From: an uncultured Gemmatimonadaceae bacterium
GTDB lineage: Bacteria > Gemmatimonadota > Gemmatimonadetes > Gemmatimonadales > Gemmatimonadaceae
Direction of reading: 5' to 3'
DNA length: 64,000 nt
NCBI GenBank assembly: GCA_963822945.1
Contig: CAWGJO010000006.1
Span: forward strand, 10,712 to 74,711
Part shown: positions 6,649 to 14,463 of the stretch, one piece after another
Layout of the letters: each line of letters opens with the position of its first letter
How positions within the stretch are numbered: the stretch's first letter is position 1
Position numbers and translations under genes: made by a program
The notes under the pieces: model-generated
Told to the model about the DNA's origin: nothing
Databases searched by the model: none
What the model saw: the letters and a program-made list of their open reading frames with translations, nothing else

Positions 6649-7049
6649 GTGCCGACGCCTCCGCCGATCGTCCACAGCCGCCCCATCCGTCCGGGCCGCG
6701 GCGCCACCGGCTGTACAAGCCGATGGTGTCGCGTACGGTGTACTACCGGCATCTGGTGCGGAACGCGCTCATCGGCGGCTCGATGGTCGGGGTGGCGTTG
6801 ATGGTCGGTGTGGTGGGCTACCACGTGACGGCGAGTCTCGGGTGGCTCGACTCGCTGGTGAACGCGAGCATGATCCTGGGCGGCATGGGCCCGGTGGATC
6901 CCATCCGGTCGAGCGCCGGCAAGTGGTTCGAGAGCTTCTACGCGCTGTTCAGCGGCGTGGTGTTCATCGGGTCGGTGGGCGTGATGCTGGCGCCGCCGGC
7001 CAAGCGGTTCCTGCACCGGTTCCATCTGGACATCGAGGCGGACGACTAG
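6645..7049 (+). CDS. Small membrane protein (2TM ion-channel-like)
   Basis: GYH..LGWLDSLVNASMILGGMGPV..GKWF.SFYALFSG with two hydrophobic segments. Confidence 0.65.
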   Translation: MSADASADRPQPPHPSGPRRHRLYKPMVSRTVYYRHLVRNALIGGSMVGVALMVGVVGYHVTASLGWLDSLVNASMILGGMGPVDPIRSSAGKWFESFYALFSGVVFIGSVGVMLAPPAKRFLHRFHLDIEADD

Positions 7050-7429
7050 AAGGCCACCCTCACCACGCGGATGCTGTCGGGAACGAGCCCATCGGCGGGT
7101 CCGGGCACCAGGCGCCACCAGTAGACGAGGGCTTCCTTCGCGCCGGCGTAGTAGCCGGAGACGGTGGAATACGAGATGCTGGTGTCGGCGCCCGGGCGCA
7201 AAATCAGGCAGCCCGGAATGTCGGGGCCGCATGGGGCCCACAGGATCAACGCGGACTCTCCCGCCTCGACGGGGAAGAAGCCGATTGAGAAGCTGCCGCG
7301 GTTGCTCAGATGGATGGCGGAGTCGGCGGCCGACACCGCGACAGCGAGATCTTCGCGCGGCATCGTGGGCCCGTTGCAGGCGGCCACGAGTATCGCAGCG
7401 AGGATGGCGGTAACGGTTCCGGTGCGCAT
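7046..7429 (-). CDS. Hypothetical lipoprotein
   Basis: MRTGTVTAILAAILVAAC lipobox; GGAGG RBS upstream. Confidence 0.7.
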   Translation of the reverse strand: MRTGTVTAILAAILVAACNGPTMPREDLAVAVSAADSAIHLSNRGSFSIGFFPVEAGESALILWAPCGPDIPGCLILRPGADTSISYSTVSGYYAGAKEALVYWWRLVPGPADGLVPDSIRVVRVAF

Positions 7430-7562
7430 AAGGCCTCCGTGGATGGACGGCGGCAGAGCCAACGGTTTCGTGGGCCGCCCGTCCCTACCAGAGGTCAACT
7501 CCGTCGCCGCGCCGGCGGTCACGGAACGGGCATGAGGCCCTGGCGGGATGCGGAACCGTTAC

Positions 7563-7591
7563 TTGACAGGTCCCCGATCGCCGGTGAAGAT
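7563..7591 (+). promoter_or_regulatory. Sigma70-like promoter of the phhA leader
   Basis: Perfect TTGACA (7563-7568), 17-bp spacer, GAAGAT (7586-7591); the leader ATG lies 7 nt after the -10. Confidence 0.55.
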
Positions 7592-7598
7592 TCGCGGC

Positions 7599-7682
7599 AT
7601 GACGACGCACCTCTGCGCCTGGTATTCCTACTGGTATTCGACCTCATCCACGGGCCGAAGCTGGAGGCGTGCGCACAGGTAG
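7599..7682 (+). CDS. Attenuator leader peptide MTTHLCAWYSYWYSTSSTGRSWRRAHR (Trp/Tyr control codons)
   Basis: 27-aa ORF with a W-Y-S-Y-W-Y cluster at 7620-7637, lying directly upstream of a terminator and phhA. Confidence 0.8.
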   Translation: MTTHLCAWYSYWYSTSSTGRSWRRAHR

Positions 7683-7704
7683 TCAGGCGCTGGAGTCTTT
7701 CCTC

Positions 7705-7737
7705 AGGCGGTCCGTGAAGTTCACGGGCCGCCTTTTT
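7705..7737 (+). terminator. Intrinsic terminator (attenuator hairpin) upstream of phhA
   Basis: AGGCGGTCCGTGAA-G-TTCACGGGCCGCCT followed by a T tract, about 25 nt before the phhA ATG. Confidence 0.85.
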
Positions 7738-7762
7738 CGTGTTCACCACCACCGAGGTCGCC

Positions 7763-8525
7763 ATGCTGGACGCCGCACAGAAGCTCCCAACCGAAGAGCC
7801 GCAGTTCATCGAGCAGCGGTGGAACGAGTACACCAACGAGCAGCACGACGTGTGGGCGCTGCTCTACGAGCGGCGGATGCGCGACCTGGCCGAGCATGGC
7901 AGCGAGGTGTATCTGCGGGGCGCCGAACGGATCGGGTTGTGTCCCGACTGCGTGCCCGACCTGCGCGTGGTGAACGAGAAGCTGCGGGTGCTCACCGGGT
8001 GGCAGGCGGTGCCGGTGAGCGGGTTCCTGCCGGCGCCGGAGTTCTTCCGCTGCCTGTCGCGGCGCCTGTTCCCCACCACGGTGACCATCCGGCCGCGGGA
8101 GCAGCTCGACTACCTGCCGGAGCCCGACATCTTCCACGACGTGTTCGGGCACGTGCCGCTGCACGCGAGCCCGGCGTTCGCGGACTATCTGCAGCGGTTC
8201 GGGCAGATTGCCTGCCGGGCGGAGCGGGAGGAGCAGATTGCGGGGATGGCGCGGCTGTTCTGGTTCACCGTGGAGTTCGGGCTGGTGAGGGAGGACGACG
8301 CGGGTGAAGGTGTACGGGAGCGGGCTCATCTCGTCGCACGGCGACGCGGCGCACGCGCTGGGCCCGGAGTGCGAGCGCCGGCCGTTCAGTGTGGACGCGG
8401 TGCTGGCGCAGCCGTTCGAGATCGACCGGATGCAGGACGTGCTGTTCGTGGTGGACACCTTCGGGCTGCTCTTCCACGCGGCGCAGGAGGCGGCGGACAG
8501 GTTGGGGATTCCGGACGCCGTGTGA
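7763..8525 (+). CDS. phhA: Phenylalanine 4-monooxygenase (aromatic amino acid hydroxylase); frameshift ~8300
   Basis: LDYLPEPDIFHDVFGHVP (iron ligands), RLFWFTVEFGL, then KVYGSGLISS in the next frame. Confidence 0.92.
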
Positions 8526-8543: not shown

Positions 8544-9059
8544 GTGAAGACGATCACGGGCAGTAGACGATGGGTGGTAGCCGCCATGCTGGCAGTGGTG
8601 GGCATGGCGGCGGCGTGCAAGCAGGGGCCCACGCCGCAGCAGGTGGCGCAGCAACAGGCCGAGCGCGCGCAGGAAGTGGCGAGTTCGCCCTGTCCGGCCG
8701 ACGGGTGGTGGAAGGAGTGCAGCCTGACAGCGCGGCTGCTGGCTGCGGGGATGGGCGTGCGGCTGGACAGCGCGCCGGCCAGGGACAGTGCCATTGCCAA
8801 GCCGGGGCTGCTGTACCACATCGGCCGTTCGACGCTCAAGGTGTTCCTGTTCGCCGATTCCGCGGAGCGGAAGGCGGCGGTGGCGAAGTTGGACACCACG
8901 GGGTTCATCGGGTACGAGGCCACGCAGTCGTACCCGCCCAAGACGTCGATGCTGCAGTCGGCCAACCTGCTGGCGCTGCTGGTGAGCCAGAGCGAGACGC
9001 AGCGGCAGCGGATCGGAGACGCGATCACGGCGGGGGCGCCGCAGCCGGCGAAGAAGTAG
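8544..9059 (+). CDS. Hypothetical lipoprotein
   Basis: Hydrophobic signal ending MAAAC; GC3-rich codons. Confidence 0.7.
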   Translation: MKTITGSRRWVVAAMLAVVGMAAACKQGPTPQQVAQQQAERAQEVASSPCPADGWWKECSLTARLLAAGMGVRLDSAPARDSAIAKPGLLYHIGRSTLKVFLFADSAERKAAVAKLDTTGFIGYEATQSYPPKTSMLQSANLLALLVSQSETQRQRIGDAITAGAPQPAKK

Positions 9060-11248
9060 GGACGAGGAGGAGCACGGCCAGCACGCGCACCGGACGGTCG
9101 CTGTCGCCGCGCGCGTGGAGTTGGGCGAACGTGCGGACGGCGTTGAGCCAGGCTTCGTCGGGCATACGTGCTTCTGCAAGTTCCTGAAGCACCTGCTCGG
9201 CGCCGGCGCCGAAGGCCGAGGTGGCGGCACGGCGCGCGTCCCGGGTGAGTGGGGCGTATCGGGCACGCAGGTGCCGCGGGCTTCGAGATGCGATGCCGTC
9301 GATGCGGCGGAGCATCCGCCGGCGCGCGACGGCGGTGCCGATGGTCGCCGGCTCGAGCAGTCCGAGCGAATCGAGTTCCTCGCCCCACTCGTGCACGCGC
9401 GCCACGACCTCGTCGGCGAGGGCGGAATCGAAATCCGTTTCGCCGCCGCCGGCCGCCTCGACCGCGTCGAGAACGGAGGCCAGGTCATCGCGGGTTCGCA
9501 GCAGGTCGCCGCAGAGCAACCGTGTTTCGCCCGCGGCCTGAACGACGGCGAGGTAACCGGGTTCTGCTGCATGCGTCGCCGCCACCAGCGTCGGACCGGC
9601 AGGACGATCCGGGGTGGGCGCGAGCCAACGCTCCAACGCCTGCGTGAGCCGGCCGGCCGCCGTGAGCGCGGCCGGAGACTCGACGGCGGGGGCAGCGAAG
9701 AGGCGCGGCACGATCGCCCCCCGGATTCCGACCGCGCGCGCGGCTTCGCGCAACTTGCGGCGCAGGTGGGCTTCGAGCTGGAGCAGCTTGTTCGCGCCGG
9801 CGGGCGGCCGCATTGCGTAGACGAAGACCTCATCGTGCGGCGATCCCATACGCCGGATCCGGCCGATGCGCTGTTCGCACCGCGCGGGAGTCCACGGCAG
9901 GTCGGCATGCACCACGACGTCGGCCGCCTGCAGGTTGACTCCTTCGCTGAACAGATCGGTGGTGATGAGCGTCCGGACGCGCTGCGCCGCCGGCACCCGA
10001 TCGCGGCCGCCCGGCGCGAACTGGGCCAGGAGTTCACGCCGAGTGATCCGGCCGCCGGCGACGGCGCCTCCGCGGCCGGTGAGCATGGCGACCTGGCCGT
10101 ACGGAGCGAGGCGCCGGTAGAGCGCCTTCACGGTCTCGCCGAACTCGGCGAACACTACGATCTGTGAATCCGCGTGGCGGCGCATCACGTCCAGCAGCGC
10201 CTCGGCTCGGGTGTCGTCCGGATCGGGGTCCATCGCCAGGGCGTGCAGCAGCCACTCCACGCCGTCGCGGTGAAAGGTCGCTTCGTCGATGAGCGTTGCG
10301 TCGTCCGGGATGAGCGAATCGCTGGCGATCTGCGGAAAGGCCAGTTGCAGCGCGCCCTCGGTGTAGCACCAGGCCCGCAGTTGCGCGCGTGTCGGATAGC
10401 GATCGGCGTCGAACGCCTCGAGAAGCGCTTCGCACTGCGCCAGCCGCCGGCGGAGCGCCGACGCGAACGCGGCGCGGCTCGAACCCCATTGCCGGACGAG
10501 GGAGAGTGTGAGCAGAGCGCCGCCGTCTCCGCCGTCTTCCACCGGCACCGGAGGGGGCAACTCGAGAATCTCGTCGAGAATGCGCTCGTCGGCCCGGATG
10601 TCCAGCCACTTCAGGCCGGCCACGCGTGGGAGCACGGTACCGCGCTCGCCAGGGTCGACGTTGTCCGCCTCGCGCTTCACCACGCATGCTGCCAGACCGT
10701 CGGCGTCCAGGGCGCTCGCACGGCGCCCGAGAAAGAGCGCGAGTTGGGCGCGGAGGTCGTCGAGGCGATTGTGAACGGGCGTGGCCGAGAGGAGCAGCAC
10801 CGGCACGCGCGCGCAGAGTCGCGCTAGCGCGCGGTAGCGGCGCGTGGACGGGTTGCGAACGTGATGCGATTCATCCGCGATCACGAAGTCCGCGTCGAAG
10901 TTGAGCGCGCGTCCGCGGCTGAGCGCCTCGTACGATATGAACGTCGCCCCCATCCCGGCCCTGGCCAGCGCGTCGGTCCACATCCCGCGCAGGGCCGCGG
11001 GCGCCACGACGAGCAGGCGTTCCGCGTGTCGGGCCGCGGCGAGCGACGTGTAGGTCTTTCCGAACCCCACCGGATCCGCCAACATCGCGCCGCCGTATCT
11101 CGCCACGAGTTCGCGCAGGCGAGCGCCGGCCGCCCGCTGGTACGGGCGCAGCACGATGGTACCGAGCGTGTCGCGTCCCCGGGCGCCGAGCCACGCGCGC
11201 GCGATGGCCGCGCGCACGCATGTCCGCATTGCCGCGCGTCCAGTTCAT
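9025..11248 (-). CDS. SNF2/SF2 helicase (DExH). Start is probably the ATG overlapping the MTase stop, with a frameshift ~11225; alternative start 11229
   Basis: LADPVGFGKT, DESHH, SATPVHN, TTDLFSEGVNLQ and WTPARCEQRIGRIRR. Confidence 0.9.
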
Positions 11249-14200
11249 CGGGTGCTCCACCGAAGCAGCGGCGCCAATTGCCGCCGATCGATGCCGAATG
11301 CCTCGAGCACGCTCTCGAGAAGTTGCGCGTCGGGAATCGGGACCGGCGGGTCATGGCCCTCGAACCGCGTCACCAGCGGGGCGAGCGTTCGACGCGCGCG
11401 GTCCCAATCGGCGGGAAGGGGAAGGCGCGCCATGGTCCAACCGAGGTAACGTCGGAAGCCACCTCTTGCGGGCTCGGCGAGCACGTGCGACCACGCGGCC
11501 GCCACGGGCGAGTTGAGGATCGCGGCGAGAGTACGCGCGTCGTCCGCGTCCGCGCAGCGAATGACGTAGCAGGTGTTCATCGGCACGGTCGGGTCGCCGG
11601 CCGGCAGGACGAGCGCCCGCGGCCGCCGCCCGAAGTCGGCCCAGACGACGCGCGGGACATCGGAGCGAGCGCCGTCCGTGCGGAAGAGCGTCCACCAGGG
11701 GCACTTGCCGTGCGCATCGGTACGCGCGGCCAGACGATGCCGGTAGCGCGAGAGCCACCGTCGGGTGCGGGGCGGCAACTCCCGAAGCGCTACTCCGCGT
11801 TCGTCGCACGGCCAGACGATGCGCTCGCGATCACCGGTGCTCACCCAGGGCCGAAGAGTCTCCCCGCGAACGACCGGCCGAAGGTGGCGGCACTCGAGTT
11901 CGCCGGTCTTGCCCCCGGCGGCGCGAACCGTCGCGACCCCGCCGCGCGCGTCGAGCAACTCGACCACGAACGCGTCGTTGCACCCGCTCTTCACGCCGAG
12001 CAGCGGGCGGCCGACGGGTCCGTCGGCGAGCGGGACGCCGATGCGTGTCAGGCGATCGAACGCAGCACGCACCGCCGGCGGGAGCAGCAGCCACGGGCTT
12101 CCGGCGGTGTCGTCGAGCGTGAGTCCGCTCGGCGGGAGGTGCCATGCCTCCCGCGTCCCGTGCCGGTGCACGGCGATCGCGATCGGTTGGCGGACGGCGT
12201 CGCCGATTGCCGGCGGTTTGCGGGCGACGAGCAGGGACGGGTAGACGGCCGCGTCGAAGAGAGCGGGGGCGTCAGAGTAGTCCTCGACGCGCACCACCCG
12301 CGCATGCTCGTCCACGAGACGCCGCACTCCGCCGCCGGCGAGCGACCGCCAGAGCTTGGCGGGAAGGAGCAGGGCGAGCGTTCCGCCGTTGGCAAGCAGC
12401 GCGACGCTGCGCTCGACGAACAACGCCGCGAGGTCGACCTGGCCGGCGAACCCCGCCGACGCGTGCGCCGCGGCGGCCCCGGGCTCCCACTGCGCGCGGC
12501 GGAAGACGAAGTAGTCGGCCTGGAGCCGCGCGCGTTCTCTCGCCGGAATGCGGTGCAGCCGCACCCACGGCGGGTTGCCGATCACGACGTCGAATCCTCC
12601 CCGGTCGCCGATGTCTGCGAAGTGCACGGGAAAGGAGAAGGGGAGCGCGCCGCCGTCGGCCAGTCGGCGATGCTCGCGCTGCAGCACCACCACACGGCGT
12701 CGGAGCGATGTCAGATCCCGGCGGTCAGCGGCCGTGAGGCGATGCCGCTCGCCGAACAGATCGCGCCCACGGTGCGCCAGCACCGCTTCACGACGGGCGT
12801 GCCGCGCGGCGGTCAACTCGCGCTCCAGCAGACTCAACGCTCGTGATCGCTCCCGGCGATCGAGCGTCCGGCCGAGCGTCGACTTGCGGGCGCCCGTGGC
12901 TCGCGCGTAGCGGCGGTGGAGGAGTGCGAGCTTGGACGAGCCCGCGGCGTGTGGTCCGTCAGCCGCTCCGAAGCCGGGACCGGAGAGCGAGTCGCCGACG
13001 CGTACGTTGCGATCGAGATTCGGGAGCGGAGCGACGGCTAGCGGATCGGCGACGTCGCACTCGATAACCACGGCGAGCCAGAGCCGGAGTTCGCACAGCC
13101 AGACGGCCGTCGGGTTCCGGTCGACGCCGAACAGCGATGCGGTCAATACGTCCCGGCGCACCGCGCTCACGGGTCGCCGGTCGCCGAGCACGATCCGGAG
13201 ATCGGCAAGGCGGTGCAACGCGTGCACGAGAAAGGCCCCTGAGCCGCACGCCGGGTCGAGCAGGGTGGCGCGCGCGAGACGCCGGCGGAACTCCTCGTGA
13301 TCAGCGACCGGCGGCGCGCCCTCTACGAGCAGGCGAGCGGCGTCGGACTCCGATAATCCGGTCGCGACGAGCAACTGCTCGAGCGCCTGATCGGTGACGC
13401 GTTCGACGAGGCGCTGTGGGGTGAAGAATGCGCCGCTGTCTCGGCGGTCGTGCGATGCCATGAGCGATTCGAACGCTCGGCCGAGCATCTCCGGATCGAC
13501 GGCGGCGTCGCTCCACGTGGTCGAATCCTCACGCGCCGTGAAGCGGTATCGGGAGAACAGATCGCCGACGATTGCGCCGAGGGCCCGGTCGGCAAAGACG
13601 AGGTCGCGGTTGCGTCGTTCGACCGGCGTGGGCGCGAAGAGGCCGCCGTTCAGGAACGGGATGCGGCCGAGGGCGCGGGCGGTCGGGGCGCGCCGGGCCA
13701 GCGGTGTGTTGAGCGTGCCGAAGAAGAGCGGGCGAAGCACGCGTGCGTGAAACCGCCCGCCCGCTGCCGCGCAGGCATCGAAGCTCTCGATGAGGTACGT
13801 GCGGCGGCCGTCGAGCCACCCCTTGGCTTCGAGGAACGCGAGAAAGAGGAGGCGCGAGGTGTAGAGGAGGGCGAGCGTGCGCCGGTCGTCGGGCGGGCAG
13901 CGTCCCGGTGCCGACGTTGCGAGATCGGTCACTCGCCGCTCGAGTTCGCGGTAGAACCGCCGGCAGAGCGCGTCGCGGCCCAGGACCTCAGTCCATCGGA
14001 GGTGCTGGAGACCGGCATCCGTGTTCGCGCCCGATTGAAGGGCGCAGATCGTCTCGGCGTCGCTGACGCGCACCTGCCGGCGATCGACGAGCAGCGATCG
14101 GACGCGCGGGGGACGGCGGTCACCGCTCCAGGCGGCGAGCGCAAGGGACGCGTCGCGGTTGTCGGCCAGGGCGACCAGGCACAGCAGGTGAGGCGCGTGC

Positions 14201-14463
14201 GATTGCAGGCGCGCGGCGATACGGGGAAGCTGTTCGCGGAGCGGGGGGCCGGCCCCGATCACCCCCGCGAGCGCGCATCCGCCGTTGCCCACGGGAATGA
14301 ATGTCAGATCGCGGAATGACTCGGTAAGGCCGATCGCCGAGCGGCGACCCGCGTCGAGTGGTCGGGCGACTCCGTCGATCCCGACCGACGCCAGCAGCGT
14401 GGCGATCGCGTGCGGAGAATCCGCGGCGGCCAGGAGGGCGGCCGCGGTACGGGGGGAGAGCAC
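11245..14463 (-). CDS. Large N6-adenine DNA methyltransferase (Eco57I/type IIG-like, with TRD-like C-terminus)
   Basis: IPFLNGGLF, VDPEMLGRAFE, SGAFFTP, LDPACGSGAFL and FDVVIGNPPW. Confidence 0.9.
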   Translation of the reverse strand: MLSPRTAAALLAAADSPHAIATLLASVGIDGVARPLDAGRRSAIGLTESFRDLTFIPVGNGGCALAGVIGAGPPLREQLPRIAARLQSHAPHLLCLVALADNRDASLALAAWSGDRRPPRVRSLLVDRRQVRVSDAETICALQSGANTDAGLQHLRWTEVLGRDALCRRFYRELERRVTDLATSAPGRCPPDDRRTLALLYTSRLLFLAFLEAKGWLDGRRTYLIESFDACAAAGGRFHARVLRPLFFGTLNTPLARRAPTARALGRIPFLNGGLFAPTPVERRNRDLVFADRALGAIVGDLFSRYRFTAREDSTTWSDAAVDPEMLGRAFESLMASHDRRDSGAFFTPQRLVERVTDQALEQLLVATGLSESDAARLLVEGAPPVADHEEFRRRLARATLLDPACGSGAFLVHALHRLADLRIVLGDRRPVSAVRRDVLTASLFGVDRNPTAVWLCELRLWLAVVIECDVADPLAVAPLPNLDRNVRVGDSLSGPGFGAADGPHAAGSSKLALLHRRYARATGARKSTLGRTLDRRERSRALSLLERELTAARHARREAVLAHRGRDLFGERHRLTAADRRDLTSLRRRVVVLQREHRRLADGGALPFSFPVHFADIGDRGGFDVVIGNPPWVRLHRIPARERARLQADYFVFRRAQWEPGAAAAHASAGFAGQVDLAALFVERSVALLANGGTLALLLPAKLWRSLAGGGVRRLVDEHARVVRVEDYSDAPALFDAAVYPSLLVARKPPAIGDAVRQPIAIAVHRHGTREAWHLPPSGLTLDDTAGSPWLLLPPAVRAAFDRLTRIGVPLADGPVGRPLLGVKSGCNDAFVVELLDARGGVATVRAAGGKTGELECRHLRPVVRGETLRPWVSTGDRERIVWPCDERGVALRELPPRTRRWLSRYRHRLAARTDAHGKCPWWTLFRTDGARSDVPRVVWADFGRRPRALVLPAGDPTVPMNTCYVIRCADADDARTLAAILNSPVAAAWSHVLAEPARGGFRRYLGWTMARLPLPADWDRARRTLAPLVTRFEGHDPPVPIPDAQLLESVLEAFGIDRRQLAPLLRWSTR

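Follow-up and report, generated by a model that had tools for sequence, protein, structure and literature searches.

What controls the phenylalanine hydroxylase gene phhA in this member of the Gemmatimonadaceae, and which signal does it follow? In the window (the whole stretch of DNA analysed, 64,000 nucleotides long), phhA is preceded by a promoter-like sequence, a short open reading frame rich in aromatic codons, and a terminator hairpin; a sequence-only reading took these parts for an attenuator sensing Trp and Tyr together. Judging from sequence comparison, the element is very probably a ribosome-mediated transcription attenuator; it would sense charged Tyr-tRNA and switch phhA on when Tyr is scarce. 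The parts as first read off, namely a TTGACA-17-GAAGAT promoter, a 27-aa ORF with W-Y-S-Y-W-Y, a terminator, and a segment 2 able to pair within it, all agree with the sequence at the following positions.

7563..7568, + strand: predicted -35 hexamer, TTGACA (from the sequence)
7586..7591, + strand: weak predicted -10 hexamer, GAAGAT, with a 17-nt spacer from the -35 (from the sequence)
7599..7682, + strand: leader ORF of 27 codons, predicted leaderless (ORF call)
7620..7637, + strand: control codons W8 Y9 S10 Y11 W12 Y13 (codons 8-13 of the leader ORF)
7637..7659, + strand: helix 1:2, the anti-antiterminator and predicted pause hairpin, central mismatch conserved (RNAalifold)
7649..7657, + strand: segment 2, the 5' strand of antiterminator 2:3 (pairs with 7708-7716)
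7705..7737, + strand: intrinsic terminator 3:4 with U-tract (stem 7705-7733, 13 pairs, 5-T run)
7708..7716, + strand: segment 3, common to antiterminator and terminator (pairing, alignment)
7754..7757, + strand: Shine-Dalgarno-like GAGG of phhA, outside the hairpins (from the sequence)
7763..8525, + strand: phhA, phenylalanine 4-monooxygenase, with a one-base insertion at 8300-8301 (PRK11913 and PF00351 matches)

The leader ATG at 7599 lies 7 nt after the -10 hexamer, and segment 2 (7649-7657) is identical to part of the terminator 3' arm. At this genome's Tyr frequency, at least three Tyr residues in a given six codons would be expected with P ~2.4e-4. The leader sequence of the window has a folding z-score of -1.69, the single terminator found in 3 kb equals the shuffle mean of 1.0, and a consensus scanner called no promoter at the leader. 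A chance origin is thus excluded by conservation across homologues and not by this window alone. On the minus strand, a small lipoprotein-like ORF (7046-7430) separates the upstream gene from the phhA promoter; it has no Pfam or NCBIfam match and is missing at the equivalent site in many members of the genus. Elsewhere in the window, an SNF2-like helicase with weak similarity to DISARM DrmD/DpdE stands beside a large ORF with DNA methyltransferase-like motifs, recognized by eye (9025-11229 and 11245-14463, minus strand); the pair is a possible defence locus.

The phhA frame that opens at 7763 is lost beyond about residue 179, with the remainder of the protein encoded in another frame ending at 8525. 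Both parts match PRK11913 and PF00351, so the earlier assignment of the gene holds, although the frameshift at 8300-8301 had been missed. The extra base is absent from four aligned relatives and from the contigs of two DNA runs from two studies, and is likely an assembly error or a strain-private lesion. A 99%-identical orthologue (L002) is intact, with 253 residues and a PRK11913 score of 294 bits against a cut-off of 247. The PhhA residues aligned with H138, H143, and E184 of structure 1LTU, which we take to be the His-His-Glu iron ligands, are identical to them.

To survey the distribution of the leader, PhhA was searched in 61 relatives, 36 of which matched, and in 401 genomes of the phylum, with 82 matched at E up to 1e-60. 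Eighty loci were examined: all 39 matches of the first search, 40 from the second (33 chosen as the best new matches, plus seven weaker matches), and a single pattern hit. In two of the 80, the upstream DNA was too short for scoring. A homologous Tyr-rich leader was found upstream of phhA in 49 of the 78 scorable loci, belonging to 48 genomes of the Gemmatimonadota. Its presence follows the enzyme: 49 of the 58 loci in the near PhhA group carry it versus none of the 20 in the distant group, a grouping drawn from a quick tree and identities. The nine near-group loci without a leader include all four of one genus. Conservation of an aromatic-rich upstream ORF at orthologous loci had been set beforehand as a test of the attenuator, and its outcome was favourable, with the open frame kept in 49/49 leaders and, in 36 of these, closed by a stop codon 31 nt beyond segment 2. 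The terminator hairpin occurs in 49/49 by construction, since the leader search demanded it; its covariation does not. Among the leaders, L022 belongs to an unpublished genome, G022, and supports no claim by itself. A DNA pattern scan of the genome contigs returned one true phhA leader (L128, titled Gemmatimonadaceae) among the 120 matches listed; the other 119 were not phhA leaders, and the pattern was set aside as too loose for a distribution survey. One genome (G009) holds two near-identical phhA copies on different contigs, each with its own leader (L005 and L031). What look like remnants of decayed leaders, with no gene following them on their strand, were seen at L267 (G096:C21:248203-248320), directly behind a tRNA-like sequence, and at L272 (G027:C6:114089-114203).

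Tyr is the constant signal of this leader family. The control window contains at least one Tyr codon in 49/49 leaders and at least two in 48/49, and the last of them lies 14 nt upstream of segment 2 in 38/49. The two Tyr codons are used almost equally (82 TAC, 80 TAT), as would follow if the amino acid, and not the codon, counts. Phe appears in the control window of only one of the 49 leaders. Trp is present in all 16 leaders of the genus, in six of the 33 others, and in 22 of 49 overall; the family as a whole does not keep both codon types in the manner of a thrL-type dual attenuator.

RNAalifold recovered two helices from the leaders, the terminator and a hairpin at 7637-7659 (helix 1:2). 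The earlier inventory had placed antiterminator and terminator correctly and had overlooked helix 1:2, which covaries. Helix 1:2 is paired in 92.1% of cells with 38 double changes, and terminator 3:4 in 95.9% with 47 double changes, both counts being inflated by the relatedness of the leaders; for each helix, none of 500 shuffles scored as high. Antiterminator 2:3 is paired in 92.7% of cells versus 29-41% for slid partners, and shows one double change among the 49 leaders, no excess over shuffles, the helix being nearly invariant. Covariation of both alternative helices had been named as a check: it is present in the terminator, whereas the antiterminator keeps its pairing without covarying. 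A further helix (CTGGAGG at 7661-7667 with CCTCAG at 7701-7706), once proposed to extend the antiterminator, was rejected, being paired in 61.5% of cells with covariation no better than that of shuffles in a poorly aligned region; a shifted inner helix may occupy the site. Helices 1:2, 2:3, and 3:4 are mutually exclusive, with 1:2 competing with 2:3 for segment 2. The central position of helix 1:2 forms a standard pair in only 3/49 leaders and is mismatched in the other 46, which would leave this helix weaker than 2:3. Together, the short ORF and the choice between 2:3 and 3:4 support the trpL/pheL-type geometry.

In the proposed switch, transcription would start at the leader ATG, with a ribosome trailing RNA polymerase and the polymerase pausing at hairpin 1:2. 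A shortage of Tyr-tRNA would halt the ribosome no later than Tyr13, where it would cover segment 1 and leave segment 2 free; 2:3 would then form before segment 4 emerges, the terminator would be blocked, and phhA would be transcribed, its product converting imported Phe to Tyr. With ample Tyr, the ribosome would translate through segment 2 and reach the stop codon, 3:4 would form, and transcription would end near 7737-7741.

The folding part of this scheme was modelled by removing the RNA under and behind a ribosome assumed to cover 12 nt from the first A-site base. Such masked folding covered 47 of the 49 leaders, L176 and L187 being omitted because their segment 2 was mis-anchored. With the ribosome on the last Tyr codon, P(2:3) exceeded 0.5 in 47/47 leaders, in line with the switch first proposed for a Tyr stall; 2:3 formed in 57% of leaders with the ribosome two codons past the last Tyr and in 6% at three codons. 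In this model, a stall frees segment 2 and read-through covers it, the switch lying 2-3 codons past the last Tyr. In naked RNA, 2:3 was above 0.5 in 20 of the 47. For the full-length stalled RNA at equilibrium, the terminator is preferred by 11.9 kcal/mol, with a barrier of 9.2 kcal/mol from the antiterminated fold. Four E. coli control attenuators behave alike (preference of 4.7-25.0 kcal/mol, barriers of 5.8-15.6 kcal/mol), and the switch must thus be kinetic, as in the textbook cases. Masked folding of the pre-terminator transcript with the ribosome on codons 26-28 again permits 2:3 (P 0.9-1.0), folded about a ribosome that has nearly reached the stop codon; shut-off would thus depend on timing or steric effects.

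The likeness to the E. coli leaders trpL, pheL, hisL, and thrL is one of design. These likewise possess a short ORF, cognate codons overlapping segment 1, helices 1:2, 2:3, and 3:4, and an intrinsic terminator, and they share the thermodynamic pattern in the stalled-ribosome model. The phhA leader differs from them in its probable sensing of Tyr, in its target phhA, and in its likely leaderless start, and no sequence relationship is apparent, with leader model R1 matching 0/4 of them at E up to 1.

As to the start, a TTG[AC][CA] motif lies 34-38 nt upstream of the leader ORF in 40 of the 49 homologues, a conservation that is partly by construction because leader starts were picked with the -35 distance in mind. 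Of these 40, 35 have an A2/T6 -10-like pattern that ends 5-8 nt ahead of the start codon, against a shuffle mean of 6.8 and maximum of 15, and only 4/40 carry a Shine-Dalgarno-like word there. The leader ORF is therefore likely initiated leaderless, with transcription starting at its ATG, as had been suggested from the window. Three phhA leaders (L168, L169, and L196) lie within a few bases of a tRNA-Gly gene and lack a -35 at the usual distance, which suggests co-transcription from the tRNA promoter. A single RNA run yielded two small contigs, both lying within phhA, and left the leader uncovered, which is uninformative either way.

Does the leader also read Trp? The sequence-only reading proposed dual sensing, and selection on the Trp codons of the genus could have made phhA inducible by Trp shortage as well. 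Trp immediately precedes the last Tyr in 16/16 genus leaders, two genus members carry Trp where the upstream Tyr would be, and masked folds with the ribosome held at W8 or W12 form 2:3 as well (P 1.0), so some response to Trp is physically expected. Outside the genus, however, only 6/33 leaders contain any Trp in the control window, and within it five Tyr leaders upstream of tyrA operons have none. Moreover, predicted pairing makes the UGG codon an extension of helix 1:2 in 12 of the 16 genus leaders, which explains the conservation of Trp without sensing. PhhA also retains the residue aligned with W180 of 1LTU, a residue that presumably favours Phe over Trp as substrate. Dual sensing is thus doubtful for this family, and selection for it in the genus appears rather unlikely, since Trp is mostly genus-specific and has a structural explanation in the predicted pairing. 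Two other leaders deserve mention here. L014 (G005) has two Trp codons and a single Tyr, stands before a faster-evolving PhhA, and is a candidate for shifted specificity. A Y-S-W-Y-W-Y leader upstream of DAHP synthase (L260/L283; G084:C1:1207131-1207261) is a candidate for true Trp and Tyr sensing of the common aromatic pathway, and a better such case than the phhA leader.

The Tyr reading gains from second copies of the scaffold, which were sought in the genomes with a covariance model built from the 49 phhA leaders. The scaffold with Tyr codons was found upstream of operons containing tyrA at 12 loci. In the genus, exactly the five genomes with a prephenate dehydrogenase have a Tyr-rich, Trp-free leader before a tyrA operon, organized as DAHP synthase-chorismate mutase-tyrA or chorismate mutase-tyrA; other genomes contribute six more tyrA operons and one chorismate mutase-TyrA fusion. 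Six further leaders lie upstream of DAHP synthase with no tyrA within the stretch fetched, and one of these six, containing both Tyr and Phe codons, is upstream of prephenate dehydratase. With His codons, the scaffold precedes hisG at 12 loci, of which three were assigned by family scan and the rest by N-terminus. One of them lies in the present genome, where a His-rich leader (L213; G000:C20:770532-770675) is situated directly 5' of hisG; a strict genome-wide leader scan missed it and a looser one recovered it. A leader with a Trp codon upstream of DAHP synthase-trpE was found at one locus, and a Cys-codon match upstream of cysK had a weak covariance-model score. In pairwise comparison with the window leader, scaffold likeness was clear for aroF (z 10.0), hisG (z 4.9), and trp (z 5.0), versus z -0.3 for the Thr leader of this genome and z 0.2-2.7 for the E. 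coli leaders; the cysK case, at z 2.5, falls in the latter range and is indistinguishable from background. Ten other candidates (L227, L228, L229, L234, L255, L257, L259, L264, L270, and L271) were discarded as ordinary terminators or noise lacking a convincing leader.

No scaffold leader was found upstream of trpE in the four genus genomes checked, nor upstream of the lone chorismate mutase of the present genome (L290; G000:C20:695294-695593). This gene is 66% identical to the chorismate mutase of the Tyr-leader operons, stands without aroF or tyrA, and is possibly a remnant of a lost operon. The same genome has a leaderless-looking Thr-rich ORF followed by a terminator (G000:C21, minus strand from 291745; eight Thr in the region of codons 5-12), on a scaffold that differs from that of the phhA leader; the next gene is, from the look of its N-terminus, presumably a threonyl-tRNA synthetase gene.

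Because the Tyr, His, and Trp codons match the pathway downstream, the sensor codons track the pathway product, and this match is the strongest argument for Tyr as the signal and PhhA as a maker of Tyr. We lean towards one ancestral leaderless cassette in the Gemmatimonadota that was duplicated and re-targeted by sensor-codon swaps: Tyr for phhA and aroF-CM-tyrA, His for hisG, Trp for DAHP synthase-trpE, and perhaps Cys for cysK.

The same comparison bears on a TnaC-like arrest peptide, in which nascent T-G-R with its basic tail would stall the ribosome on free Phe or Tyr and induce phhA for catabolism. The T-G-R motif and Arg-rich tail are indeed well conserved, the genome encodes the Tyr catabolic enzyme HPPD, and PhhA is classically catabolic (PMC1173090). 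T-G-R is encoded by segment 2, however, whose bases are fixed by pairing, and several leaders (L012, L022, L023, and L194) change frame or end early downstream of the motif. Stalling there would also cover segment 2 and favour termination, Phe is all but missing from the control window (1/49), and the scaffold recurs upstream of the biosynthetic tyrA and hisG operons. An arrest peptide is thus very unlikely here. Still less probable is an RNA switch that works without translation (a riboswitch, a T-box-like element, or a protein-binding one), the ORF being incidental: strong nucleotide-level conservation and the conserved mismatch in helix 1:2 would suit it, but Rfam gave no family at gathering scores and none at E up to 5 in 7400-7900, the start codon, open frame, and stop position are all conserved, and the Tyr codons vary synonymously and are swapped for His or Trp upstream of other pathways.

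Tyr attenuation of phhA would make sense if PhhA supplies Tyr, a role proposed at the outset and supported by the occurrence of the same leader upstream of tyrA operons. In the genus, prephenate dehydratase was not found in 16/16 genomes, and prephenate dehydrogenase was not found in 11/16, the present one (G000) included. Phe is likely imported, then converted to Tyr on demand. Across a wider set, a prephenate dehydrogenase match was obtained in 8/23 leader-bearing genomes versus 24/38 others, a weak trend among kin that are not independent. G000 carries pterin dehydratase, HPPD, DAHP synthase, chorismate synthase, and TrpA, with the pterin dehydratase gene about 16 kb from phhA on the same contig. 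It is 88% complete, and trpE, present in 12/12 genus relatives, was not found in it, probably through incompleteness; its own gene absences are therefore weak evidence. In other bacteria, there is genetic support for PAH as a main or redundant Tyr route (PMC7311316).

Several described systems resemble the phhA leader in part. For E. coli aroF-tyrA, attenuation through Tyr-tRNA was proposed in 1980 (Camakaris et al.) as a hypothesis (PMC8632094, PMC2659441), and in Acholeplasma, a member of another phylum, uORFC-13-1 is a Phe-codon uORF upstream of aroF (PMC8632094). Both likewise concern control of an aroF operon by termination through aromatic codons; neither involves phhA. Putative attenuators, their type unstated, have been noted upstream of tyrA operons (PMC1173090). 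The mycobacterial polycysteine attenuators (bioRxiv 10.1101/834739) share a leaderless short ORF in which one amino acid is sensed by ribosome stalling; they sense Cys and free a ribosome-binding site, whereas the phhA leader has a predicted intrinsic terminator and a Shine-Dalgarno sequence outside the hairpins. The phhABC operon of Pseudomonas aeruginosa encodes the same enzyme family, but is described as catabolic, with a PhhR activator, a sigma-54 promoter, and phhB and phhC in the operon (PMC1173090); here, control lies in an RNA leader and the pterin dehydratase gene is far from phhA.

The literature search, in the parts of the sources it reached and with subscription papers on comparative attenuation outside its coverage, found no phhA attenuator and no leader in the Gemmatimonadota, in agreement with the initial remark that none was known to that reader for phhA. 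In particular, no phhA attenuator was found in the consulted portions of PMC2965389, PMC2659441, PMC1173090, PMC8632094 (with one supplement), and PMC11109978. No demonstrated attenuator for tyrosine was found by the search. Attenuation itself is classical; what appears to be new is the amino acid sensed, the target gene, the likely leaderless start, and a scaffold common to His, Trp, and other Tyr leaders.

With the phhA leader, classical leader-peptide attenuation would extend to tyrosine as a sensed amino acid, and the near PhhA group would be marked as an enzyme that makes Tyr, as opposed to one that initiates the breakdown of Phe. If the cassette was indeed duplicated and re-targeted, these bacteria would possess a ribosome-read Tyr regulon spanning both Tyr routes without a TyrR/PhhR-type protein, and would provide a natural case of plug-and-play attenuator evolution; the codon-swapped common scaffold would make the origin and specificity change of attenuators directly testable. 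The leader is also a compact candidate Tyr biosensor, and leaders of this kind may offer a readout of amino-acid physiology in a mostly uncultured phylum of soil and sediment.
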